Positions 1 to 26,126 of a DNA stretch of 26,126 bases are shown here, one piece after another. A program made the translations under genes and the position numbers. This DNA is from Oligoflexales bacterium. GTDB lineage: Bacteria > Bdellovibrionota_B > Oligoflexia > Oligoflexales > Bog-1112. Each line of letters starts with the position of its first letter. Positions within the stretch are counted from its first letter, which is position 1. The stretch lies in NCBI GenBank assembly GCA_045106415.1, contig JBGCEP010000016.1, forward strand, positions 1 through 26,126. The letters are read 5' to 3'. The notes beneath the pieces are model-generated. The model made no database searches and was not told the DNA's origin. It worked only from the letters and a program-made list of their open reading frames with translations.

Positions 1-1620
1 AAATGATGACAATGACGATGAAATAGATTCAAATTTAGATCTCGAAATCGACGAAAACAATAAAGACATCGAAGAAAATGATGACAATGACGATGAAATA
101 GATTCAAATTTAGATCTCGAAATCGACGAAAACAATAAAGACATCGAAGAAAATGATGACAATAACGATGAAATAGATTCAGATTTAGATCTCGAAACCG
201 ATGAAAAAAATAAAGACATCAAAGCAAATGATAACAATGACGATGAAATAGACTCAGATTTAGATCTCGAAACCGATGAAAACAATAAAGACATCGAAGA
301 AAATGACAACAATGATACTGAATTAGATTCAAATTTAGATCTCGAAACCAACGAAAACAATAAAGACATCGAAGCAAATGATGACAATGACGATGAAATA
401 GACTCAGATTTAGATCTCGAAACCAACGAAAACAATAAAGACATCGAAGAAAATGATGACAATGACGATGAAATAGACTCAGATTTAGATCTCGAAACCA
501 ACGAAAACAATAAAGACATCGAAGCAAATGATGACGATGAAATAGACTCAGATTTAGATCTCGAAACCGACGAAAACAATAAAGACATCGAAGAAAATGA
601 TGACAATGATACTGAAATAGATTTAGATTTAGATCTCGAAGCCGACGAAAAAAATAAAGACATCGAAGAAAATGATAACAATGATACTGAAATAGATTTA
701 GATCTCGAAGACATCGAAGCAAATGATGACGATGAAATAGATTTAGATTTAGATCTTGAAACCGACGAAAACAATAAAGACATCGAAGCAAATGATGACG
801 ATGAAATAGACTCAGATTTAGATCTCGAAACCAAAGAAAACAATAAAGACATCGAAGCAAATGATGACAATGATACTGAATTAGATTTAAATTTAGATCT
901 CGAAACCAACGAAAACAATAAAGACATCAAAGCAAATGATGACGATGAAATAGACTCAGATTTAGATCTTGAAACCGACGAAAACAATAAAGACATCGAA
1001 GTAGATGATGGCAATGATACTGAAATAGATTCAAATTTAGATTTAGATCTTGAAGACGACGAAAACAATAAAGACATCGAAGTAAATGATGGCAATGATA
1101 CTGAAATAGATTCAAATTTAGATTTAGATCTCGAAACCGACGAAAAAAATAAAGACATCGAAGTAAATGATGACAATGATACTGAAATAGATTCAAATTT
1201 AGATTTAGATCTCGAAACCGACGAAAACAATAAAGACATCGAAGCAAATGATGACAATGATACTGAAATAGATTCAAATTTAGATTTAGATCTCGAAGCC
1301 GACGAACACAATAAAGACATCGAAGCAAATGATGACAATGATACTGAAATAGATCTAAATATCGAAGCCGATGAAAGCAGTAAAGATCTCGAAGCAAGTG
1401 ATGACAATGAAATAGACCAAGAAACAAATAATGACAATGAAATAGATCTAGATATTGAAGAAAATGATGGTTGTGAAATAGATCTAGATATCGAAACAAA
1501 CCACAACAATGACAATGAAGTAGATCTAGATACCGAAGAAAATGGTGGTAGTGAAATAGATCTAGATATCGAAACAAACCACAACAATGACAATGAAATA
1601 AATCTAAACATCGAAGAAGA
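1..1620 (+). repeat. Intragenic tandem repeat array: about 19 units of 51/69/75/81 bp, then shorter degenerate EIDLDIE units
   Basis: The anchor TAAAGACATC occurs at 61, 136, 211, 286, 361, 436, 511, 580, 655, 775, 844, 919, 988, 1069, 1150, 1231 and 1312. A truncated unit lies near 710 and a variant at 1381. Consensus peptide is about NDDNDDEIDSDLDLETDENNKDIEA. Confidence 0.97.
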
Positions 1621-2695
1621 AAACAAGGGCGATGAAAAAGACCTAGATATCCAATCTAGCGAAAACAATGCAGATCAAAACATCGATACAAATGATAGCA
1701 ATGAAAAAAATCTCGGCATAAATTCAAAACAAAAAAATGATTTAAACATCGATCTTAGCACCGAAGAAGAAACGATTATAGATATTAGTAAAAAAACAGA
1801 TCACAATAACAACTTAGAACTCGAGATTGATAGCAATGAAATTCCCACCGAAGATAATCATCTCAATACAAAAATCAATATTGACCCACACTCCTCTGAA
1901 ATCACCAGTCCTTCTATGCCTCACACCGCATCAAGCAATCAAAGCAACATTGCCTTAGCGCTCCCAGATCTTGAACTTGAAAAAAACGAAGCATCTCTTC
2001 GAACAATTGACTCTATAGACAACGAAGTTATTGACAGCAACACTCATGAGCAAAGTATAGAAAAACAAGCTAAAGAAAATTGGGCAGAGCATGTATCGCC
2101 CCATGAGTCGCAGAATATAGGATCTGACATCAATGATATCAACCCTAATCAAACAGTACAGAACTCTGATTTTGATATCTCACTAGATTCAAATCAACGC
2201 CAAAACAATCAAGAAATAACAGAAGAAACAGCGCAACATGTTTCTTTTGCTGTAGGACACCTTAATCACGCAACAATGCGTATTGACATGACACCTGACA
2301 TCGACAAAGCCGTACAAGCTTGTTACAAAGGATTCTTTAAATCAGGCGTCAAAAGTGGGGCTATTCTAGAAAAAACTAATGGAGATTTCAAAATTCTTAT
2401 TGAATGGAACAAATCTACGCCCAAAATAGGATCTCAATCTACTTTAAAAACAGATGAGTTATCTTTAAGATTAGAGACCATTAATCAAGATAGGTGGGTG
2501 GAAAGCCCTGAGTTCAATCATTTATCAAATATAGAAACAGCAAACAATCTGAGTTCTCATCTTATAAAAACAACACATAATCACACAACTCTAGCTGCCC
2601 TCGCTTTATGGGACACCTCTCTTATTAAAGAAGATCTTGTTTCTAACGCTAGCCTCAAGCTTATAAAAAATCTTACCCACAAAATAAATCAATAA
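2..2695 (+). CDS. Large Asp/Glu/Asn-rich tandem-repeat protein, 5'-truncated by the window (>=897 aa), with a C-terminal globular domain of about 150 aa
   Basis: The frame starting at base 2 reads NDDNDDEIDSNLDLEIDENNKDIEE... I found no stop in it, and it runs in frame into the 1916..2695 ORF. All repeat length variants are multiples of 3. Confidence 0.85.
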   Translation, partial: NDDNDDEIDSNLDLEIDENNKDIEENDDNDDEIDSNLDLEIDENNKDIEENDDNNDEIDSDLDLETDEKNKDIKANDNNDDEIDSDLDLETDENNKDIEENDNNDTELDSNLDLETNENNKDIEANDDNDDEIDSDLDLETNENNKDIEENDDNDDEIDSDLDLETNENNKDIEANDDDEIDSDLDLETDENNKDIEENDDNDTEIDLDLDLEADEKNKDIEENDNNDTEIDLDLEDIEANDDDEIDLDLDLETDENNKDIEANDDDEIDSDLDLETKENNKDIEANDDNDTELDLNLDLETNENNKDIKANDDDEIDSDLDLETDENNKDIEVDDGNDTEIDSNLDLDLEDDENNKDIEVNDGNDTEIDSNLDLDLETDEKNKDIEVNDDNDTEIDSNLDLDLETDENNKDIEANDDNDTEIDSNLDLDLEADEHNKDIEANDDNDTEIDLNIEADESSKDLEASDDNEIDQETNNDNEIDLDIEENDGCEIDLDIETNHNNDNEVDLDTEENGGSEIDLDIETNHNNDNEINLNIEEENKGDEKDLDIQSSENNADQNIDTNDSNEKNLGINSKQKNDLNIDLSTEEETIIDISKKTDHNNNLELEIDSNEIPTEDNHLNTKINIDPHSSEITSPSMPHTASSNQSNIALALPDLELEKNEASLRTIDSIDNEVIDSNTHEQSIEKQAKENWAEHVSPHESQNIGSDINDINPNQTVQNSDFDISLDSNQRQNNQEITEETAQHVSFAVGHLNHATMRIDMTPDIDKAVQACYKGFFKSGVKSGAILEKTNGDFKILIEWNKSTPKIGSQSTLKTDELSLRLETINQDRWVESPEFNHLSNIETANNLSSHLIKTTHNHTTLAALALWDTSLIKEDLVSNASLKLIKNLTHKINQ

Positions 2696-16441: not shown

Positions 16442-18763
16442 CTATACAGGTTTTTGCTTCAATGTTGAGTGAGCAAGTTGTTCCAAATATGGCAACGGCT
16501 CTCCTGGCTCTCCGTACCATCTTTTATAATAAAAATAGTTCCTTAAGATCAATTTTACATAAGAACGCGTTTCTGAATAAGGTATGCTCTCAATAAACAA
16601 AAAGATGTCATCTCGCGAAAAACGTTTCATCCATTTTTTAGCTGCTGTAGAGCCTGCGTTATAAGCCGAGAGTGCATAAACAGGGTTTTCAAACCTTTTG
16701 AGTAAGCCATGCAAATGATTCACACCTAAAATAATATTTGCTGTTGCATCCATAAGTTTTTTTGAAGAAGGTTTCTGTAGAGATTTCTTCAAGCCCTGTG
16801 AGACATAAGACTCGGTTAATTTTTTAGCCTCCCCTTTTGCTGTTGCTCTCATCAGCTGCATCAAACCCACAGCTCCAGCTCCAGATCGGGCTTTGGGGTC
16901 AAACACACTTTCTTGGCGAATCAAAGACAAAACAAAATCAGGATCCATGTCTAAACGGTCCGCGTATTGCTCAACCACGTCATTAAATCTCCGAGGAAAT
17001 AGTAAACGCTCTGTTAAACTAGGCAACCCCTGGCGAAAACTTCTAGGAATTTTTCCGTAAACAATAATTGACTTTAACCAATCTCCACCCGCATGAAGAA
17101 CAAGGGATTGAATCATAGAAAGATGAGGACGAGAAACATCATAACCAAGCTCCGCGACTTCACATCGAGCTTCTTTTTGTAGACCGAGCCGCAATAGCGT
17201 AGCTGATCGAAGCGTTGTTTGTCTTTCCTCTTCAGTCAACACTCCAAGCAGATCTGCTAAACGAATTTGCCCTGTTCTCGCAGGAAAAAGCTGATAAGTT
17301 TTCCCCTCTACAGACTCCACTAAATAATGCCCCAGCGCACCGTAATATGTAGAATAATATTCACGGGCAACACGCTTCCAATACATAACTGCTCGCTCTT
17401 TTTTATTTTGTTGTAAAGAAATACGTCCTAACCAAAAAAGAGCAAACCCTAAAGACGAGACTTCTCTTTCGTCACGCGGTATTTCATCTTGCAAGGCAAC
17501 TAAACGAAAACCTGCTTGCTCCGCTTTCATAAATTCGTTGCGACTTACATAAATCAACAAAAGATGATTCAGTCCTTGCTCAACTTCTTTATGCTGAGGA
17601 TAAGAAGCGACAAAATCTTCAAATACGGATATTGCTTCTGGTATTTTAGACTGATTTTCAAGAACTTTAGCCTTCAACAAAAGAGCATTTCCTCTATGGT
17701 CAGAGGGCTGCTTTGAATACTTCAATATATTCTCAATATGAGCCAACGCCTGTGAATAACGGTCTTGTTGCCAATAAAGCCTGGCAATACGCAGATCAAT
17801 TTCACTTTTACCACGTTCGCCCCAGATGTTTTCCCACTGACCAGAAAAATCACGCCATGTTTGACGACTTCTCTCATATCCACGTCGACGATAACAGCGC
17901 GCAATTTTATGAAGTGATTCTGTAGCTAGCTCAAACCCTTCAGAGCTTTTCACCTTTTCTCTCAAACCAATCAATAATTGATCCCGAGCCGAAGAACAAC
18001 GAGAACGGCTGGCTAAAGCCTTCGCGTAAGAAAGGTGGTAGACAAAGAGTTCTTTGCTTGCTTTAGGAGTTAACCAAGGATAGCGCACAACAAGCTCAGG
18101 GTCTTTGTGAAGAAGACCTTTGAGCAATAATCGCACTTGTTCTTTTTTCTCATGAGGGACTACTTTTAAAACATCCCTTAAGTATCTCTTCCTATCTGCA
18201 GATTGCATTTGCGACAACCAGGCCACAGATTTCACAATTCTATCAGGGTGCATTGGTAGAGCACTCTCTCTACGGAGGTGACTAAGTACAAGATCTTTCT
18301 TAGCGCAACTTCTCCCCCCCGCCAAATCAAGGCCTTCACTATATTTTCGCAGCTGGCTCAGCGTCACACCAGGCACTTTCATTAACTCAGCAAAAACATA
18401 AGGTATTAAAACCGAATATTCATGAACACCTAGAGAACTCATATTTTTCTCTATTCTTTCAACAAGATCTCTATCGTATTTTTTTCTTTCATTCAAACTC
18501 ACAAGAAGAGCGTAATCTCTTTCCAATAATCCTTCTTGTTCCATCTCTAGAATTTGTTTTTTATTTTTATTTCTAACGGATATTTGACCTGAGTGACGAT
18601 CAAGCCATGACTTCAACTCTAAATCAGCTGAATTGAAACGCCGCCCTAAAGACTCATGCCTTCTTGGAGGAAGAGTTGCATATGCAACATTCACTAAAAA
18701 ACACCCTGAAAAAAACAAATATAAAGGCTTCAGATTAAAATCCAAAGTCATCATCGAGATCAT
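16442..18763 (-). CDS. slt: Soluble lytic murein transglycosylase (Slt-type) with TPR-like helical region; start may be 18751 or 18754
   Basis: Catalytic motif IRQESVFDPKARSGAGAVGLMQLM, plus AYNAG and FIESIPYSETRSYVK. Signal-like N-terminus and helical repeats. Confidence 0.9.
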   Translation of the reverse strand: MISMMTLDFNLKPLYLFFSGCFLVNVAYATLPPRRHESLGRRFNSADLELKSWLDRHSGQISVRNKNKKQILEMEQEGLLERDYALLVSLNERKKYDRDLVERIEKNMSSLGVHEYSVLIPYVFAELMKVPGVTLSQLRKYSEGLDLAGGRSCAKKDLVLSHLRRESALPMHPDRIVKSVAWLSQMQSADRKRYLRDVLKVVPHEKKEQVRLLLKGLLHKDPELVVRYPWLTPKASKELFVYHLSYAKALASRSRCSSARDQLLIGLREKVKSSEGFELATESLHKIARCYRRRGYERSRQTWRDFSGQWENIWGERGKSEIDLRIARLYWQQDRYSQALAHIENILKYSKQPSDHRGNALLLKAKVLENQSKIPEAISVFEDFVASYPQHKEVEQGLNHLLLIYVSRNEFMKAEQAGFRLVALQDEIPRDEREVSSLGFALFWLGRISLQQNKKERAVMYWKRVAREYYSTYYGALGHYLVESVEGKTYQLFPARTGQIRLADLLGVLTEEERQTTLRSATLLRLGLQKEARCEVAELGYDVSRPHLSMIQSLVLHAGGDWLKSIIVYGKIPRSFRQGLPSLTERLLFPRRFNDVVEQYADRLDMDPDFVLSLIRQESVFDPKARSGAGAVGLMQLMRATAKGEAKKLTESYVSQGLKKSLQKPSSKKLMDATANIILGVNHLHGLLKRFENPVYALSAYNAGSTAAKKWMKRFSRDDIFLFIESIPYSETRSYVKLILRNYFYYKRWYGEPGEPLPYLEQLAHSTLKQKPV

Positions 18764-20027
18764 CTATATCTCCATCATCACCGAAACCAAAAACAGTTTC
18801 TGGCTTAGTTCCATTTTGTGGTTGAGCAAGAAGAGATTCTTCAGCAATTTCTTCTAGCGGTGATTCTGTTGGTTTTGATGTGCTTGGAACTTGTCTTGAG
18901 GCTTTAGCAAAAGTAGGATCAAGTGTATTTGCTTCAAAGAAGCATTTTTTAGCTTCGGAAGGTTTGCCCCATCTTTGAAACCCAACTCCCTTGTTAAACA
19001 TCAAGCGAGATTTCAATGAGCTATCATCGCTGACAAGATTCATTGAAGTTTCATATAGCGACATTCCATGCTCATAACGACCTTGCCTCATAGACAGAAC
19101 CGCAGAAGTATTAAAAACAGAAGCAAGTTCTCTTTGCTCCGCTTCTCTCAATAAACCTAGAGCTTCATTGACATCACCCTCAACCAGTGCACAAGTCCCC
19201 TCTCCTTGAACAGCTTCTTTATGCCGTGGCTCTAAGGCCTGTGCATCTTGAAAGCTTTTTTTCGCTTCTTGATACCTTTGAAGCCTCATGAAATTTTTCC
19301 CTATTTCAACAAGTCTATCTACATGAAAAGGATTCAAGACATTCGCTTTTTCATAAAGCTCAGAAGCTCTGTCATGTTTATTAATTTTTACAAAACAACG
19401 CCCCAGTAAATGAAGAGCTCTTACATAAGGAGGTTGCCGATGCTCCCAAGGTTCTAATAAAGAAATTGCATCCATCCATCTTTCTTGTTGAATATAAAGA
19501 TCTGCAAGCTCTATTGCGACTCGAGGATTATCAGGCAGCTTCAATCTTAACTCTTCAACAGCCACAATCACTGATTCTATGCGTCCACTTCTTTTTGCAT
19601 CAGAAAATCCTGATAAGACATCTCTCAAGGGAGCTTCTTGCTCTTCAGATTCAGAAATATTTTCAATAATATCTCGAATTTTATTCCTTGAAATCTCACC
19701 TGTATGGATGTGATGCACAGAATACTCACAACCGACAGCAATGACCTCATCTGTTAGTGTTTTTCCCACTAAAATCACTGGACGAGTTTCTAAAGATGAG
19801 TCCTTGCGCAAGTGATCTAAAACAGAAACGACTGCAGATCGCCCCAACTCCCAATCAGCAATCAAAAGCATTCTCGGTTTTTCAAGCATCACTTCATATG
19901 CTTGATCACCATCGGACGTCATTTCAACTTTTGTAACACCAAGTCTACGTATTTCTTCCCGAAAAGCTTCACGCAAATCCATACGACTTGCAAATATCAT
20001 TGCTGAAGGTATCGTTTTAGACTTCAA
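18735..20027 (-). CDS. Atypical (pseudo-)receiver domain plus TPR-repeat protein with acidic C-terminal tail
   Basis: CheY-like pattern (DGDQAYEVM, LLIADW, LRKDSSLETRPVILV) followed by several TPRs (ALHLLGRCF, ANVLNPFHVDR, MFNKGVGF). Confidence 0.75.
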   Translation of the reverse strand: MKSKTIPSAMIFASRMDLREAFREEIRRLGVTKVEMTSDGDQAYEVMLEKPRMLLIADWELGRSAVVSVLDHLRKDSSLETRPVILVGKTLTDEVIAVGCEYSVHHIHTGEISRNKIRDIIENISESEEQEAPLRDVLSGFSDAKRSGRIESVIVAVEELRLKLPDNPRVAIELADLYIQQERWMDAISLLEPWEHRQPPYVRALHLLGRCFVKINKHDRASELYEKANVLNPFHVDRLVEIGKNFMRLQRYQEAKKSFQDAQALEPRHKEAVQGEGTCALVEGDVNEALGLLREAEQRELASVFNTSAVLSMRQGRYEHGMSLYETSMNLVSDDSSLKSRLMFNKGVGFQRWGKPSEAKKCFFEANTLDPTFAKASRQVPSTSKPTESPLEEIAEESLLAQPQNGTKPETVFGFGDDGDIDDLDDDFGF

Positions 20028-20036
20028 TTCATTACC

Positions 20037-20696
20037 TTAAGTTGCATCAGGTTGGGTAGCTGATGTTTTGAGTGGGTTCTCAGCCATCAGTTGAATATGA
20101 AGGTTTTCTGTTTCTGTAATAAGGTTACGTAGCCAAAGCTCTAATCGATCAACAAGGGTTTTTGCACACTCTTTCCATTCACCATTTTTTTGTTTTGACT
20201 TCAGGTCATGAATCATACGAACCAATAAGCCAGCCAGTGCGCAGGTTGCTGCTAAATTCAAATGAGAGCGATCCATTAAAGCATGAACATGCTCTAACAG
20301 CTCAACCATAAGGTTTAAATCCTCACAAAAATCTACATACTCTGCAGGAGGCTTCTCTATCCGATGTTGCCAACACACGACAGCAACTTTAGGTGTCGAC
20401 CTTTGCAAAGCCGCAGCAAGTTCACGAATCGCATCTAAAGACTCAAGAGCTAGAGTCACAGGAGAATCTACACAAATCTTAAGAAGACTCTCTTCGTTTA
20501 AAACCCTTTCTCTATCCCCAAAAGCAGGAAAACCTTCTTCATCTAAAGCAATTGCATGTTGATTAAGCTCCATGCTGGTCACAACCGATCCTTTATCTAG
20601 GAGGGTTTTTCCAATCCAGTCCATAGCATCATTTAAGCTGTGGACTGGTACCGGAACTGGGACCTTCATTTCACCAATAAATAGTTGTCTCAGCAT
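20037..20696 (-). CDS. Hypothetical protein (small beta-rich N-domain plus helical bundle)
   Basis: 219-aa ORF packed between neighbours with 6-9 bp gaps. It resembles, from memory only, hypothetical proteins of flagellin-glycosylation loci. Confidence 0.7.
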   Translation of the reverse strand: MLRQLFIGEMKVPVPVPVHSLNDAMDWIGKTLLDKGSVVTSMELNQHAIALDEEGFPAFGDRERVLNEESLLKICVDSPVTLALESLDAIRELAAALQRSTPKVAVVCWQHRIEKPPAEYVDFCEDLNLMVELLEHVHALMDRSHLNLAATCALAGLLVRMIHDLKSKQKNGEWKECAKTLVDRLELWLRNLITETENLHIQLMAENPLKTSATQPDAT

Positions 20697-20702
20697 ATTT
20701 GA

Positions 20703-22553
20703 TCATCCCGCTGAACTGGTTTTTACCTTTTTCAGAGATCTTTCGACCTGCTTTTGAAGAGCAACAGCTCTTTCATCGGCAGGGTCAGATTTAAGAATAT
20801 CTTTTAAAAGAGTAAGCGCTTCTTCATGCCGATGAGCTCTATACATAAGACCCGCTAAAGAATACGACATGTTGTGATCCGTAGGGTGAATTTTCAAGTA
20901 CGATTGAACAACATTTATCGCATCTGTGTAGTTTTCTCGTTCTTGAGAAAGTTGAACACATGAGAAAATAGCTGGCGTATTCTCAGGGTTTAACGTCAAT
21001 GCCTGAAGGATCCATTTATTCGCTTCATCAAGTTCACCCATTCCTTGAAACGCTAATCCCATACCAAGATTTGCCATTTCATCATTTGGTGCAAGAGCAA
21101 CCGCCTTCTCAAAGTGCATAACTGCAATGTCATATTTATTTTGAGTAAGATCAATAGTACCCAAACCAATACACGCTTTGTATGAATATGGATCCATTTC
21201 TGAAGCCTTCATGTAAGCATCCTTACCAGCCTCACTGTCGCCAAGCTTCGTAAAACAATCCCCAATCAGACGATAGAGATTAGCTCGATGATAAGGAGGG
21301 ATATCTTCTTCCTTATCCATTTCTTCAATGAGGTCAATGGCGACTAGGTACTGCTGAGAAGAAACTTTTGCCTCCACTTCAGCAATCTGTCTATCTATCA
21401 TTGAAATCTGCACAGGATGAATACTTTGCGTCGCATAATCTAATGCTGCTTCAAATTTTTCACGATACAAATCTCTATTCTCAAGATCGTTTATTTTATC
21501 TAAATTCTTATTAGAAATATCTTTCAGAAGATTATGTGCTGAAAAACCTTTTTTAATCGAATCAGAAAGAGAGGCAACTCCGTGAATGACAAAGTCCAAC
21601 CGATGTTTCCCAACATACTCATCAACAAGAGGAGTTCGACAAGCAAGAACCGGGAGGCCATGCGCCATACCTACTAAGAGACGAAACGGATCACCTTCAA
21701 TGCGATCCCTTGCTGCTTGTGCTCCGTAGTACAGCATATCTGCAGCACTAAACACAGCTTGTTGAGCTTGACGGCTTGGATGAACATGAATCACTTGTCG
21801 CTCAAGGCCAAGCTCAATCGCTCTTGCTCTCACCTCTTTGCTAAAAGAGCCAATTCCGTACAATAACACTCGAATATCTTCAGCAAAATCTGGAGTTTCA
21901 TTTTTTAATTTTTTAACAGCATGAAGAAGTTCCAACAAACCTTCTTCCCACTCTATTTGGCCCGTATATGCAATGACTCGATGCATTGATTGTAGCTCAA
22001 GAACTTTACGAGCTTCTTCTCTTGCTTGAGGTGACCTCGAAGCGATTTGAGCAACCCATGGCTTTAAGTCAATCACTCTCTCTTCTGGGACACCTTCTAA
22101 AAGAAGAGCCTCTCGAGCACCTTTTGATTGAACAATAAAAGCATCAGCAGCAGCTGTTATCTCTTGACGAATAGTCCGCATACTCTTGATATCTTCAGCT
22201 GGGAATGCCGTCATGTTGTCTACCCAAACCATGAGACGAAAACCATAACGCCAACGAGCTTTCAAAGATTGATATGCATAAACTCCAAGCCTTTCTTTTA
22301 CAATCACAACATCATAGCCTTTGAGAGCATTTTCAAGACCTGGAAGATACGTTGGATTTTCATCATGATCAGGCAACGCCACACAAGTTAGATCTTCAAA
22401 GCTACACGTTTCAGCGAGATAGCCACAAATAGACTCCGAAGCAATCAACTCAAGGTCATACGTTTGTGAAAGAAGTTGAAATTGATCAATCTCTTCAACC
22501 GACGGTAGGGTGCCGTACACCAGCGCCAACCGTTGTTTTTGTGATTTGTTCAT
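20703..22553 (-). CDS. GT4-like (GT-B) glycosyltransferase domain fused to C-terminal TPR repeats
   Basis: Start re-assigned to ATG 22553 (GGAG RBS). GT-B patterns ADAFIVQS, LLYGIGS and MAHGLPVLA. TPRs include LYRLIGDCF, FEKAVALAPND and ALTLNPEN. Confidence 0.8.
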   Translation of the reverse strand: MNKSQKQRLALVYGTLPSVEEIDQFQLLSQTYDLELIASESICGYLAETCSFEDLTCVALPDHDENPTYLPGLENALKGYDVVIVKERLGVYAYQSLKARWRYGFRLMVWVDNMTAFPAEDIKSMRTIRQEITAAADAFIVQSKGAREALLLEGVPEERVIDLKPWVAQIASRSPQAREEARKVLELQSMHRVIAYTGQIEWEEGLLELLHAVKKLKNETPDFAEDIRVLLYGIGSFSKEVRARAIELGLERQVIHVHPSRQAQQAVFSAADMLYYGAQAARDRIEGDPFRLLVGMAHGLPVLACRTPLVDEYVGKHRLDFVIHGVASLSDSIKKGFSAHNLLKDISNKNLDKINDLENRDLYREKFEAALDYATQSIHPVQISMIDRQIAEVEAKVSSQQYLVAIDLIEEMDKEEDIPPYHRANLYRLIGDCFTKLGDSEAGKDAYMKASEMDPYSYKACIGLGTIDLTQNKYDIAVMHFEKAVALAPNDEMANLGMGLAFQGMGELDEANKWILQALTLNPENTPAIFSCVQLSQERENYTDAINVVQSYLKIHPTDHNMSYSLAGLMYRAHRHEEALTLLKDILKSDPADERAVALQKQVERSLKKVKTSSAG

Positions 22554-22572
22554 GACGCATTCTCCAAGAAAC

Positions 22573-22926
22573 TTATATAGATCGTTGAAAACCACTCGGG
22601 TTCTGTGAACTTGACTGAAACTTACGAATATGAACTTTACCTTTTCTAAGCTCTATCCGCTGCACTTTTAGGTCATCCATCACCTGATTTAAAGCTTCCT
22701 TCAAAAGGCGATCTTGCCTTAACATATCTTCCATATGCACTCTCGACACACTATGATCTGCGGCGTAGTAACGAAAATTGCAAAAAGCCATCTTCCTCTT
22801 TCGAAGAAGAACTAATGCCTCCGTAACCATCAGCGAATCAAGAAGACATAGAGCCTCCTCTCCTCTTTCAAGGCAGACACTCAACGCCCGATCCGCTTTT
22901 GTGGAGTCACCATGCATAGAGACCAC
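22573..22926 (-). CDS. Small helical protein, tentatively FliT-like flagellar chaperone
   Basis: About 115 aa, all-helical. The pattern LL.KRK...ML.QD..L...L......L......LRKGK..I.KF is reminiscent of FliT. First gene of the operon. Confidence 0.45.
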   Translation of the reverse strand: MVSMHGDSTKADRALSVCLERGEEALCLLDSLMVTEALVLLRKRKMAFCNFRYYAADHSVSRVHMEDMLRQDRLLKEALNQVMDDLKVQRIELRKGKVHIRKFQSSSQNPSGFQRSI

Positions 22927-22946
22927 TCTTAGATGAACCTGTGTTC

Positions 22947-22976
22947 ATTCTATCGCTCAACCTAGTTTCGAGTCAA
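22947..22976 (-). promoter_or_regulatory. Candidate sigma-70 promoter of the five-gene operon
   Basis: TTGACT-N18-TAGAAT on the minus strand just upstream of 22926, with an AT-rich tract further upstream. Confidence 0.5.
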
Positions 22977-23528
22977 AATCACTTAAAAAATAAGATTTTT
23001 ATCACTTAAAGAAATAAATTCATGAAATACAAAAAAATATGAAACCTCATTGATATTTCAGTGTTTAACAAAAAACGCTAAAGTTTCAACAAATCGTAAC
23101 GCTTCTCAAAAAATAAAGATAAGTTTCTTAATTTAAAGCTTAAAGTTATTATAGGCAATTTTTTACTATAAAGTATGCACAAAATATATACCATCTCACC
23201 AAAAGCATGAAAAATAAAAAATGCTATTGTGAATTTAATTAAATCTACCTACGCTGATTTAAAATCAGATTTTTGCCTTCAGCGAAGACAGCTCCACTTC
23301 TCTCATATCAGATTATGGTGATTTTATTTATGCATTAAATCACAATAAGTTGATAAGCCCTGATTTTAAAGAAATATTTTCTATATAATAGTATAGAAAA
23401 TACTCTACCTTGGCATATCTTTCTTGTGGATTTGTGAATTCAAGATATTTTTAAATCAGCTCAAATCATGACAGAAATATTTGATAAATATATGGATATT
23501 CCCATAAAGTCATCAAGATAAAATGATG

Positions 23529-23579
23529 AAAAAATTAGACGTATCAAACTCAATTTTTTAGTCTGATACGTCTAATTTT
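23529..23579 (-). terminator. Intrinsic terminator downstream of the 24669 lipoprotein gene
   Basis: AAAATTAGACGTATCA / TGATACGTCTAATTTT form 16-bp arms (20 with a G-U pair on the minus strand), ending in T6, 16 bp after the stop codon. Confidence 0.8.
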
Positions 23580-23595
23580 GGGATCTATCATAGGC

Positions 23596-24669
23596 TTAAT
23601 TTGCATCAGTTTGGAAAGGAGTCACCGTATCCTTATAAGAAGAGTCACCAAAGACTCCTTTATGCGCTTGTGTAAATCCAGTAGGAAGAATTTCGCTCAC
23701 GCTAAAGCTGGTTATACTAGAACAATTTGTACTATCGACTTTATCGAGAGTTTTAGCATCAAGACAGATATCTAAATAATCTTCTGTATTGCTACAAAGA
23801 GTATCGATAACCGATTGATCAGGTTCCGCAAATATTCCTTTAGCATAAATATATGTGCCATCAGAACGAAGTCGAACCCCACAACTTACACCTGATCCCA
23901 TCGAGTGGTTTGCTCCCAAAGATATTTCAAATGAATTTTTTTCAGAATTTGCTTTTATCTGCATAAGAGATAATGCAGAAAGACCATCATGGGCTACGCT
24001 TCCGCCAGTTGCACTTCCATCAGATTTATCACCGTCCAAGCCTCCTTCAATAAGCTTATGAGACCCGATAAGTACTTCAATATCATTTGTTGCTGTGTTG
24101 TAGTTGGAATAAACGACATTCCCCGTTGATTGAGTTTCTGTAAGATAAAAATTGCCTCCATCAAGTCCAAATGCTAGTGCGGAAGTTCCTGTTCCATTTG
24201 GCATACCTCCTAAATCTTCCGCACACTGAAACTTTGCAGTCCTACTTATTCCAGAAGGAAAGCTATAAGAAAAATCTTGAGCCGCTTCTTCTTGGCATTT
24301 CTTTTCAGACTCTTGCGCACGTTTATCAAGCTCAGCCATACGCTCATCGATTTTATTAAGGTTGCAACGAATTCTACCTTCAATATCTGAAGGCGCACTG
24401 CCACTACACCCTTCTTTACCTCTAAAGATTCGAATAACCAGCCGCGAAAGAGCTCTGTTTTCGAAGCAGTCTGTATCTCCAGTGTTGCAAAGAACATCCT
24501 CAGCAAAACTTCTTAAATTTAAAGATGTTGACGTTGTTTTTAATCCATCAGGTGTAGCCTCTGCAACAGGCGGTTCTATCTGTGGTGCATTCAGTGACTT
24601 CCCACTCTTATCACCACAGCTTATTAAGCTAAAAGCTATTAGAAAAAATGTACCGTTTTTTTTCACCAT
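23596..24669 (-). CDS. Cys-rich hypothetical lipoprotein
   Basis: MVKKNGTFFLIAFSLIS-C lipobox and GAGGG RBS. About 10 further Cys, with a beta-rich C-terminal half. Confidence 0.75.
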   Translation of the reverse strand: MVKKNGTFFLIAFSLISCGDKSGKSLNAPQIEPPVAEATPDGLKTTSTSLNLRSFAEDVLCNTGDTDCFENRALSRLVIRIFRGKEGCSGSAPSDIEGRIRCNLNKIDERMAELDKRAQESEKKCQEEAAQDFSYSFPSGISRTAKFQCAEDLGGMPNGTGTSALAFGLDGGNFYLTETQSTGNVVYSNYNTATNDIEVLIGSHKLIEGGLDGDKSDGSATGGSVAHDGLSALSLMQIKANSEKNSFEISLGANHSMGSGVSCGVRLRSDGTYIYAKGIFAEPDQSVIDTLCSNTEDYLDICLDAKTLDKVDSTNCSSITSFSVSEILPTGFTQAHKGVFGDSSYKDTVTPFQTDAN

Positions 24670-24937: not shown

Positions 24938-25463
24938 TTAAAAGAGTTTAAGTACCGCTACAGGCCTTGGCGGAGGAAATCTATTTAGATAAAGCTTGAA
25001 ATCATCTCTATTCATAGATCTTTTCTGACTTCGACGGTTGATCCACTTGAAAAACGCTTCAAGCGCACGGTAGATCACTTTGGACACCTGACCCAGATTA
25101 CCTGAAATACCAAAATAGGCCATGTGACCCTTCAACTTTCTCCTGTACTGCTCCCAAAGGGAGTTTAATGGTAGCTGATTACGCTTGAATCTGGTCCATT
25201 TCGTCAGAGACACTACAGTTCACTTGAAAGACCTCTTCGAGGTCAGAGTCTTACTGACACTATAGCCTCGGCGGGATCGCCTCATGGCAAAAGTAAAACC
25301 CAGAAACTCGAAGGATTTTCTACATTATGAAGATTGTCTCTTATCCAGGGTGAAAACTTTTATCTTACTTGCGTTCATAGCGAATTCAAACCGTGTAAGA
25401 CGCCCTTTCAAAGCAGCCAGCACCCGGCAGATGCCTCTTGAATCCGACAGACAAATACACATA
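24938..25463 (-). pseudogene. Group II intron reverse transcriptase/maturase pseudogene fragment
   Basis: One frame reads MCICLSDSRGICRVLAALKGRLTRFEFAMNASKIKV...SS*CRKSFEFLGFTFAMRRSRRG...FK*TVVSLTKW... with in-frame stops at 25325-25327 and 25220-25222. The 5' part is cut off by the IS. Confidence 0.85.
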
Positions 25464-26126
25464 TATAGCATTGGTCACATTTATTTACTCAACATCTTCG
25501 TAGCCGCACAAACAGCATCATAAATAGAGTCACATCCATCTCTAAGAATTTTTTGTATTTTTGTTTTAACTTGATGCCACTTGTGTTCGATAGGATTGAG
25601 ATCTGGACTATATGGGGGAAGGTATAGAACTTCTGCCCCATACTCTTGAGCTATTTGAACTATATCTGAGGACTTATGAAATGAAGCATTATCAAGCACA
25701 ACAACTGCATTTCCACCCAAATGTTGGCTTAAAACCTTCTCAAGGTACGCATTGAAAACCTCTGCTGTACAACTTCCTTTAAATACAAATGGAGCAATAA
25801 TTTCGCTATGGTTGTTGAGTGATCCAATGATATTGACAGCTTTATGTTGTGAACTTCCTTTTAAACCATGGAGCCTGGAACTTTTATGACTCCATCCATG
25901 TTGACAGGATTCATTTTTCTTAACGCCACACTCATCGAGATAAATAATGTTTTTATCACTTTTATTATTTATTTCCTTTTGAAATTCACTCCGATTTTTA
26001 TCGCAGCGATTTTTGTATCCAAATGTTTTTTTTATTTATAAAACCGATAAGCCGCAAGTATCGACGAATACTCCGTGGAGAAATACCCCCCAATCTTGAG
26101 CCATTTCTTTGGAACTTCTATTAGGT
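25464..26126 (-). mobile_element. IS630-family insertion sequence (left end outside the window)
   Basis: The end reads TA-TAGCATTGGTCACAT (TA target plus terminal repeat) directly after the transposase stop, and a DDE transposase is present. Confidence 0.9.
25481..26126 (-). CDS. IS630 transposase, 5'-truncated and frameshifted (HTH part plus DDE domain)
   Basis: The frame from the A8 run (26026-26033) reads KKTFGYKNR...IIYLDECG...VVVLDNASFHK...YLPPYSPDLNPIEHKW. Upstream HTH fragments PNRSSKEMAQDWG and ISPRSIRRYLRLIGFINKK are in different frames from each other. Confidence 0.85.

Follow-up and report, generated by a model that had tools for sequence, protein, structure and literature searches.

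A three-gene core beside the type II secretion genes of Oligoflexales that is retained together with the flagellum

Background

A stretch of 26,126 nucleotides from an Oligoflexales bacterium (GenBank assembly GCA_045106415.1, contig JBGCEP010000016.1, positions 1 to 26,126 of the forward strand; hereafter the window) contains five tightly packed open reading frames (ORFs), here called g1 to g5, which lie on the minus strand and fill positions 22926..16442 (Table 1). The locus raises the question of whether these five genes act as one unit and, if so, which cellular machine they serve. A sequence-only reading of the window had proposed that they do form a unit, in which a FliT-like chaperone (g1) and two pseudo-enzyme scaffolds with tetratricopeptide repeats (TPRs), one built on a glycosyltransferase (GT) domain of the GT4 type (g2) and the other on a receiver domain (g4), couple assembly of the flagellum to a flagellar lytic transglycosylase (g5). 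Comparison with related genomes points to a different arrangement. The trio g1-g2-g3 is the conserved core of the locus, and the five genes are not one evolutionary unit. A functional tie of this trio to flagellar motility is probable, and we would give about an even chance to the more specific reading that it forms an accessory module which depends on the flagellum and shares its design with the known flagellin glycosyltransferase systems. Below, G000 denotes the genome of the window and other G numbers the genomes of its relatives, L numbers denote loci, and C numbers denote contigs of G000.

A conserved core of three genes with its own promoter

Using an alignment of g2 we found 66 related loci in Oligoflexales and 10 more distant ones in the Silvanigrellaceae; counts of neighbouring genes are limited to those loci that have enough flanking DNA. 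Among the Oligoflexales loci g1 adjoins g2 in all 54 that extend 1.6 kb or more upstream, and g3 is present in all 53 that extend 0.8 kb or more downstream, including L103, where the ORF call is over-long. The remaining two genes are variable: at the 37 loci with at least 5.5 kb downstream, g5 is found in 24, g4 in nine and both in eight, and g5 is absent after g3 in 13. The synteny expected of a five-gene unit is therefore seen for the first three genes and fails for the last two. In the Silvanigrellaceae, whose g2 is 30-33% identical, all nine loci with room downstream retain the g2-g3 pair, and the 146-amino-acid gene upstream of g2 has no similarity to g1 (hhalign probability 1.25%). The trio also has a constant neighbour of its own. 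Directly upstream of it and on the same strand lies a gene for a GspN-like component belonging to the type II secretion system (T2SS) in 53 of 54 loci, L040 being the exception, and the T2SS genes found directly upstream of g1 in relatives code for T2SSK, a PilM_2-type GspL, a GspM-like and the GspN-like protein. At L077, in Oligoflexus tunisiensis Shr3, gspJ-K-L-M-N precede g1, g2 and g3.

Several features that had been noted from the sequence of the window alone hold up on closer inspection. The five co-oriented genes are separated by gaps of 19 (g1/g2, counted from the ATG of g2), 6 (g2/g3) and 9 (g3/g4) nucleotides, with a 29-nucleotide overlap between g4 and g5, and g1 and g2 would overlap by 23 nucleotides if the latter starts at its GTG; genes packed in this manner may be co-transcribed. 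TPR families match three of the five products, namely g2, g4 and g5, in a Pfam scan, an AT-rich spacer does lie upstream of g1, and flagellin, fliD and fliS are all absent from the window, with the flagellin genes and fliS (C4:51228) of this genome placed on other contigs. The candidate sigma-70-type promoter ahead of g1 likewise gains in standing. It meant little by itself, given that the promoter scan returned in total 15 sites against 19.3 expected from shuffles. In 52 of 56 loci, however, the stretch separating gspN from g1 contains the same element, TTGAC-N16-19-TAnA[AC]T, where 200 mononucleotide shuffles gave a mean of 0.155 and a maximum of 2. Such conservation indicates that g1 begins its own transcription unit, with a promoter of the housekeeping type.

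The core disappears with the flagellum

We classified 95 Oligoflexales genomes by their flagellar genes. Of these, 81 were counted as flagellate, 77 having FlhA above the cut-off and four more (G002, G037, G039 and G042) having 4-9 flagellin genes with FlhA below the cut-off or absent; the 14 non-flagellates are the genomes with neither FlhA nor flagellin, i.e. the 18 without FlhA minus these four. g3 is encoded by 82 of the 95 genomes, comprising all 81 flagellates and one of the 14 non-flagellates (G010). The GT domain of g2 is found in 80, all of them flagellates (80/81, G007 lacking it), and in none of the 14 non-flagellates. By comparison, GspL of the T2SS is present in 92 of the 95, all 14 non-flagellates included, and its three misses fall in genomes that are 67-82% complete. 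The link to the flagellum that the sequence-only reading had suggested for the whole array is thus borne out for g1-g3, and it does not extend to g5, as set out below.

A phylogenetic tree of GspL allowed the changes in flagella to be counted. It comprises 41 genomes, namely all 14 non-flagellates, family f1 without G015, which is fragmented, and one to four genomes from each other family, and was rooted with two Silvanigrellaceae sequences; it is a single-gene tree with support from the Shimodaira-Hasegawa-like approximate likelihood ratio test (SH-aLRT) only. Families f6 and f10 are off the tree, GspL being missing or partial in them, and the 54 omitted genomes are all flagellates with g3. 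Flagella change at least six times on this tree. Across six independent contrasts in flagella, g3 changes in the same direction in five, in the opposite direction in none and remains unchanged in one, and the same figures are obtained for g2 (5/0/1); a sign test on these contrasts gives p = 0.0625, the lowest value that five pairs can reach. There are hence at least five independent co-losses of the trio and the flagellum, and the dependence is one-way: no flagellum, no module. The loss can be strictly local. In the non-flagellate G014 gspL-M-N is followed by unrelated convergent genes, at the place where its congeners G005 and G011 have gspN-g1-g2-g3, and the genome of G014 is not reduced (2.9 Mb versus 2.7-4.0 Mb in the congeners).

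Two side observations concern the non-flagellates. At L120 the non-flagellate G010 retains only gspN-g3, with g3 intact after gspN, and together with its congener G013 (L123) it seems to catch the module in decay. Further, the GspL match runs through one in-frame stop codon in the non-flagellate loci L162, L163 and L172 (G019, G049 and G050; TAG, family f5) and L160 (G018; TAA).

The proteins of the core

The product of g2 has a GT4-fold domain (about residues 1-385) followed by a C-terminal TPR array, and no signal peptide is visible in it by eye. The Pfam family PF00534 (Glycos_transf_1) matches with 46.7 bits against a cut-off of 26.4, along with many TPR families. Its 616-amino-acid form is present letter for letter in the Atlas, where the model falls on GT4 clusters with template modelling (TM) scores of 0.72-0.82 over residues 1-380. 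In GT4 enzymes the Arg and Lys of the GR...KG motif bind the diphosphate of the sugar nucleotide, and the two acidic residues of EX7E form the canonical pair. In the alignment of g2 with MshA (3c4q) GRLQPFKG is replaced by GQIEWEEG and NESFGLVAMEA by IEGDPFRLLVG, so that Q213 stands for the Arg, E218 for the Lys and V308 for the second Glu of EX7E, with the first acid kept as E300. In nine of nine orthologues the same positions hold Q/N, E/D and a residue that is never acidic, with a mean column identity of 61% overall, which suggests that the substituted motifs are maintained by selection and are not a product of decay. Pseudogenes were dropped as an explanation, given that the orthologues are intact. 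The sequence-only reading had recognised that key residues are replaced here; its description of g2 as non-catalytic goes further than these substitutions establish. G000 also encodes a second protein combining PF00534 with TPRs, a distant paralogue of g2 with 568 amino acids (L129, C44:5617-7323, minus strand), which sits 4.3 kb from a flagellin gene (335-1264), with genes for CarD, PNPase and dUTPase between them.

g1 codes for a cytoplasmic protein with a conserved LRKAAFHNFR motif and a conserved C-terminal tail, for which AlphaFold predicts a three-helix bundle (helices 5-30, 34-57 and 63-107) with a predicted local distance difference test (pLDDT) score of 85.4. The public gene call for it (P0040), of 72 amino acids only, is too short, because the N-terminal helix that it omits is conserved (R21 being nearly invariant) and is modelled as part of the protein. 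A small, unnamed family is indicated by the approximately 20 relatives, all hypothetical proteins, that were recovered in a search of 5.8 billion proteins. No Pfam family matches g1 at E<=0.1, FliT (PF05400) included, and the sole match in NCBIfam is UmoC, which at 14.8 bits (E 0.023) stays below its cut-off of 120. The best match in a fold search is a IIA-cellobiose protein of the phosphotransferase system (E 0.36), and the FliT chains 3a7m_B and 6ch2_D come only at ranks 8 and 11 (E 1.8-2.2, TM 0.44-0.45), amid unrelated helical proteins. FliT, the export chaperone of FliD, is like g1 a small, all-helical, cytoplasmic protein; unlike its four-helix fold the model of g1 has three helices, and a match in sequence is absent. 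With no profile match, an insignificant similarity in fold and no fliD or fliS as a neighbour, the identification of g1 as FliT is unsupported.

The model of g3 (pLDDT 88.5, predicted TM score 0.73) displays a small beta-grasp-like domain at the N terminus and, after it, a four-helix bundle. A Foldseek search of the PDB with it returned nothing at E<=1e-3, the best hit being a chain of BAG1 (4.8e-3, TM 0.24), and its VIA matches are to generic four-helix bundles only (Z 10-14, residues 77-212), a comparison in which the N-terminal domain was barely tested. Searches of Pfam and NCBIfam gave nothing above cut-off, with VipB_2 as the only sub-threshold match, and neither g1 nor g3 matches any of the PHROGs profiles. 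The family is likewise small and unnamed: 1.84 billion sequences yielded 228 representatives at E<=1e-3, and the search of 5.8 billion gave about 20 proteins. We had considered a phosphotransfer between g3 and g4 of the histidine phosphotransfer (HPt) type and dropped it, as HPt appears among the generic bundle matches only and g4 is optional. Complex prediction for g2, g1 and g3 gave 0.00 with the g3 partner in both runs, which had no controls, and is counted neither way.

In their architecture these proteins recall three systems that act on flagellin. FlmG, the flagellin O-glycosyltransferase of Caulobacter crescentus, whose TPR domain is described as binding flagellins (PMC7591256), resembles g2 in being a cytoplasmic, flagellum-tied protein of about 600 amino acids that combines TPRs with a GT-B domain. 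Unlike FlmG, g2 has the reverse order, GT then TPR, is of the GT4 type with replacements at the diphosphate-binding Arg and Lys and at the second Glu of EX7E, and is accompanied by two constant small partners; the likeness drawn here is one of architecture. According to the account of Shewanella oneidensis in bioRxiv 10.1101/2023.12.03.569772, the TPR domain at the C terminus of Maf-1 gives it flagellin specificity, whereas Maf-2 needs a cis-encoded four-helix-bundle factor, GlfM, and forms a ternary complex with it and flagellin. The same logic could apply to g2 with g1 and g3, and these three proteins may form a complex of their own. There are differences here too: G000 has no Maf-type domain (PF01973), g1 is a three-helix bundle, and g3 joins a beta-grasp to four helices. 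Finally, GmaR of Listeria monocytogenes (637 residues) shares with g2 the order of an N-terminal GT followed by TPRs, and, as it is described as both modifying flagellin and regulating flagellar genes (PMC9638930), it provides a precedent for a GT-TPR protein whose role may be mainly regulatory. Its GT region, unlike that of g2, spans about 180 residues and is not of the GT4 fold, and it has in addition linker and antirepressor domains, which are absent from g2 (PMC9638930).

Weighing the flagellar reading

Taken with the phyletic pattern, these parallels suggest that g1-g2-g3 may be an ancient, separately promoted cytoplasmic module of the Oligoflexia whose retention depends on the flagellum. 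The TPR array of g2 would hold on to flagellin, or to some other substrate of flagellar export, until that is exported, with g1 and/or g3 acting as adaptors. As for g2 itself, it might transfer a sugar that comes from a non-canonical donor, or it might serve as a non-catalytic holder or regulator. G000 has eight flagellin genes and two NeuB genes; by the analogy drawn above flagellin may be the direct target of the trio, a proposal that we make tentatively and consider somewhat doubtful.

A number of observations weigh against the flagellar reading. First, binding or glycosylation of flagellin by the trio is proposed by analogy, and one of the two NeuB genes of G000 stands in a context resembling a capsule or O-antigen locus. 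Second, the replacement of the diphosphate-binding residues in g2 makes ordinary GT4 chemistry unlikely. Third, the constant chromosomal neighbour of the trio is the T2SS and not flagellar genes, its promoter is sigma-70-like, and the region upstream of g1 contains a sigma-28-like pattern in none of 56 loci and a sigma-54-like pattern in two of 56. (For the eight flagellin upstream regions of G000 themselves no clear common promoter could be derived by eye.) Fourth, there are flagellates with an incomplete module: in G007, which is 92% complete, the locus reads g1-g3-g5 with g2 missing, and G013 has g1, a 408-amino-acid g2 without the TPR part, and g3. Fifth, in a class-wide sample of 104 genomes that are at least 85% complete, the sister family f18 has FlhA in 26 of 27 genomes, of which no more than 12 of the 27 yield a g3 that the profile can detect (E 1e-12 to 1e-18), and family f17 has FlhA in two of two and g3 in none of two. 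The module is thus either not needed for flagella in general or has diverged in these families beyond the reach of the profile. Lastly, loss of flagella may accompany a broader change in lifestyle, so that the co-loss could reflect another motility-linked process.

This last point leads to an alternative in which the trio belongs to a general module of the motile phase or of cell polarity, serving a process that is lost along with flagella and not acting on flagellar proteins. Chemotaxis, the organisation of the cell poles or an attack-phase programme would be examples of such a process. The phyletic pattern, which shows only co-loss with flagella, is compatible with it, as are the housekeeping type of the promoter and the typical use of TPR and pseudo-receiver proteins as scaffolds. 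We nevertheless regard this alternative as unlikely, since the combination of GT-B and TPRs with small helical partners is specifically an architecture of flagellin modification, and since the excision in G014 is precise and local in a genome that has not shrunk.

The neighbouring type II secretion genes

The sequence-only reading overlooked the constant neighbour of the trio, the T2SS cluster, which in G000 lies on another contig. C21 carries a complete cluster, with two copies each of gspC and gspD, the genes gspE, F, G, J, K and L plus M-like and N-like genes, that ends at position 1267; beyond it, at the start of the contig, is the N-terminal part of an IS630 transposase (HTH_Tnp_IS630, C21:51-440). 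Positions 25986-26126 of the window and C21:1-141 are 100% identical over these 141 bases, as compared to 93-97% for at least 15 other copies of the element, and the two contigs hence most likely abut. The order restored from this overlap would most likely be the T2SS genes, IS630, a remnant of a group II intron maturase, a gene for a lipoprotein-like protein of 357 amino acids, the AT-rich spacer and g1-g5. The isolated state of the operon in G000 would accordingly be secondary, resulting from IS630 and other inserted DNA; neither the lipoprotein-like gene nor the intron remnant occupies the corresponding place in relatives, and the spacer 5' of g1 far exceeds the distance between gspN and g1 in them (median 114 nucleotides). 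IS630 copies often lie at contig ends and appear to be a main cause of the assembly breaks in G000. In the Silvanigrellaceae a convergent gspN is found 3.6-4.7 kb from the g2-g3 pair in seven of the 10 loci, with gspL and gspM also in five, and two of the remaining three loci end less than 2 kb from g3.

This neighbourhood allows the locus to be read as an accessory module of the T2SS, with g1-g4 as cytoplasmic regulators or scaffolds of the secretion platform and g5 opening the peptidoglycan for the secretin or the pseudopilus. Besides the gspN-like gene upstream of the trio, the gspL-M-N genes near the Silvanigrellaceae pair and the contig overlap in G000, it finds favour in the position of g5 directly after gspN in G003, G018 and G047, and in the description of peptidoglycan-binding helpers of T2SSs, namely GspA/GspB and the SPOR domain of LspD (PMC9239104). 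However, GspL is kept in all 14 genomes that lack both g2 and flagella and in the 13 that lack g3, which means that the T2SS functions, or is at any rate retained, in the absence of the trio. The presence of a conserved promoter belonging to g1 itself and the 13 of 37 loci in which g5 does not follow g3 also speak against this reading, which we consider decidedly unlikely. It is conceivable, with a similarly low probability, that both associations are meaningful. The trio would then be a flagellar accessory system of a new kind. A GT4-derived protein that has lost sugar-diphosphate binding might have been re-used, with two dedicated small partners, to hold flagellin or an export substrate, and its place beside the T2SS might reflect a real coupling in which the motile phase gates secretion or the reverse; this, if true, would be a direct regulatory bridge between the flagellum and the type II secretion system.

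The T2SS cluster of G000 is itself of some interest. At L036 (C21:11381-17695) two secretin genes, for proteins of 795 and 643 amino acids, both with N0, Secretin_N and Secretin domains, stand in tandem, as do two GspC-like genes with PDZ domains. In the literature on the T2SS of Oligoflexia and on T2SSs and peptidoglycan enzymes we found no description of the genes studied here, whose families are nameless and hence not directly searchable.

The variable genes g4 and g5

g4 encodes a pseudo-receiver domain, a TPR array and an acidic tail, and would be an adaptor that was added to the core module in some lineages. The match of its first domain to the receiver family (PF00072) scores 18.6 bits, below the cut-off of 30.2. 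It aligns to CheY over residues 17-98, and the phospho-Asp position that it has in common with CheY-like receivers, D57 in CheY and D58 in g4, is kept in 12 of 12 sequences. Unlike in these receivers the acidic pair, the Thr and the Lys are missing in all 12: S/T/A and S/K/P take the place of the acidic pair and I/A/G that of the T87 equivalent, and the K109 equivalent is His in 10 of the 12. Here too the conservation of the substitutions argues against decay, and the absence of key residues that had been noted in this receiver domain is a stable feature of the family. Pseudo-receivers of the FrzS type give a weak match to g4 (E 0.07). G000 has at least eight further paralogues of g4 at 20-30% identity, on C83, C45, C67, C59, C27, C26, C21 and C18, two of which are on C67, the contig with flhA.

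g5 is predicted to be an active lytic transglycosylase of the Slt70 type. Its SLT domain (PF01464) scores 85.9 bits against a cut-off of 21.3 and is accompanied by TPR-like repeats; its RQES motif aligns to residues 476-479 of Slt70 (1qsa), placing the catalytic Glu, equivalent to E478 and by count E618 of g5, as the intact residue that had been recognised before, and the AYNAG motif is also kept. It has a signal peptide (MISMMTLDFNLKPLYLFFSGCFLVNVAYA), read by eye, and is thus predicted to be exported. g5 shares the SLT domain with these motifs, a long N-terminal part of helical repeats and a signal peptide with Slt70 of Escherichia coli and with BB0259/LTaseBb of Borrelia burgdorferi (PMC8517470). 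On the model of the latter, a spirochaete flagellar enzyme (NF047373, BB0259_flg_lyt), g5 scores 175.7 bits, below the cut-off of 234, and on that of Slt70 (PRK11619) 105 bits, below the cut-off of 536; a paralogue of g5 on C18 reaches 99.2 bits on the BB0259 model.

A flagellar role of g5 would have been attractive, given that the FlgJ of G000 is single-domain (a 109-amino-acid frame) and that, according to a proposal in PMC8517470, lineages with such a FlgJ rely on a lytic enzyme separate from it, so that a separate flagellar peptidoglycan enzyme is expected in this genome. Its distribution points elsewhere. Among 31 genomes the non-flagellates G003, G006, G010, G018 and G019 have an orthologue of g5 (E<=4e-52), and the flagellates G004, G005, G011 and G015 have only paralogue-level matches, at approximately 1e-24 to 1e-27. 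Being present in five non-flagellates and missing in four flagellates, g5 is not a flagellum-bound gene and in this differs from BB0259. We can therefore set aside as very unlikely the five-gene unit with a FliT-like chaperone and a flagellar lytic transglycosylase, as the single-domain FlgJ, the tight packing in G000 and the higher score of g5 than of its paralogue on the BB0259 model are outweighed by this distribution, by a score under the cut-off of that model, by the insignificant similarity of g1 to FliT and by the variable presence of g4 and g5.

What g5 often does have is the distal position in the T2SS region, which would suit an enzyme that helps the secretion machine to be installed through the cell wall; as the T2SS is near-universal in Oligoflexales, co-distribution cannot test such a role. 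Dedicated hydrolases are described for type III and type IV secretion systems, and none for type IVa pili, in PMC5285504, and there is no lytic transglycosylase among the T2SS helpers named in PMC9239104. An Slt70-type enzyme that so often follows T2SS genes is thus a candidate for the dedicated cell-wall opener of a T2SS.

Other features of the window

The coordinates of the genes discussed above and of the remaining features of the window are collected in Table 1. At its start lies a very long ORF, of which the non-repetitive C-terminal 259 amino acids match no Pfam family.

Table 1. Genes and other features of the 26,126-nucleotide window
Feature	Position	Strand	Remarks
g1	22926..22573	-	117 amino acids (ORF)
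g2	22595..20703 (GTG) or 20703..22553 (from ATG 22553)	-	630 amino acids from GTG; 616 from ATG
g3	20696..20037	-	219 amino acids
g4	20027..18735	-	430 amino acids
g5	18763..16442	-	773 amino acids
Sigma-70-type promoter	22947..22976	-	TTGACT-18-TAGAAT; 10/12 consensus positions; g1 transcription unit
AT-rich non-coding spacer	22927..23595	.	Upstream of g1, about 670 nucleotides; GC 0.256 at 23001-23500
Lipoprotein-like gene	23596-24669	-	357 amino acids, without family
Group II intron maturase remnant, weak	24938-25213	-	GIIM 19.1 bits, below cut-off
IS630-family element	25460..26126	-	Multi-copy; 3' part, leaves contig; DDE_3 5.4e-20
Very long acidic ORF	2-2695	+	Highly repetitive, D/E/N-rich units of about 25 amino acids; runs off window start

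Implications

The neighbourhood of this locus points to the T2SS and its co-loss to the flagellum, and an annotation drawn from the operon alone would mislead. GT-TPR systems directed at flagellin have been described in a handful of model bacteria, and each of them has shown another way in which the substrate can be recognised. If the flagellum-dependent reading of g1-g2-g3 is correct, the trio would be a third such design, based on GT4 and requiring two partners, from a barely studied phylum of predatory or host-dependent bacteria. As the module is carried by a culturable species, Oligoflexus tunisiensis (strain Shr3), the question can be put to the test.

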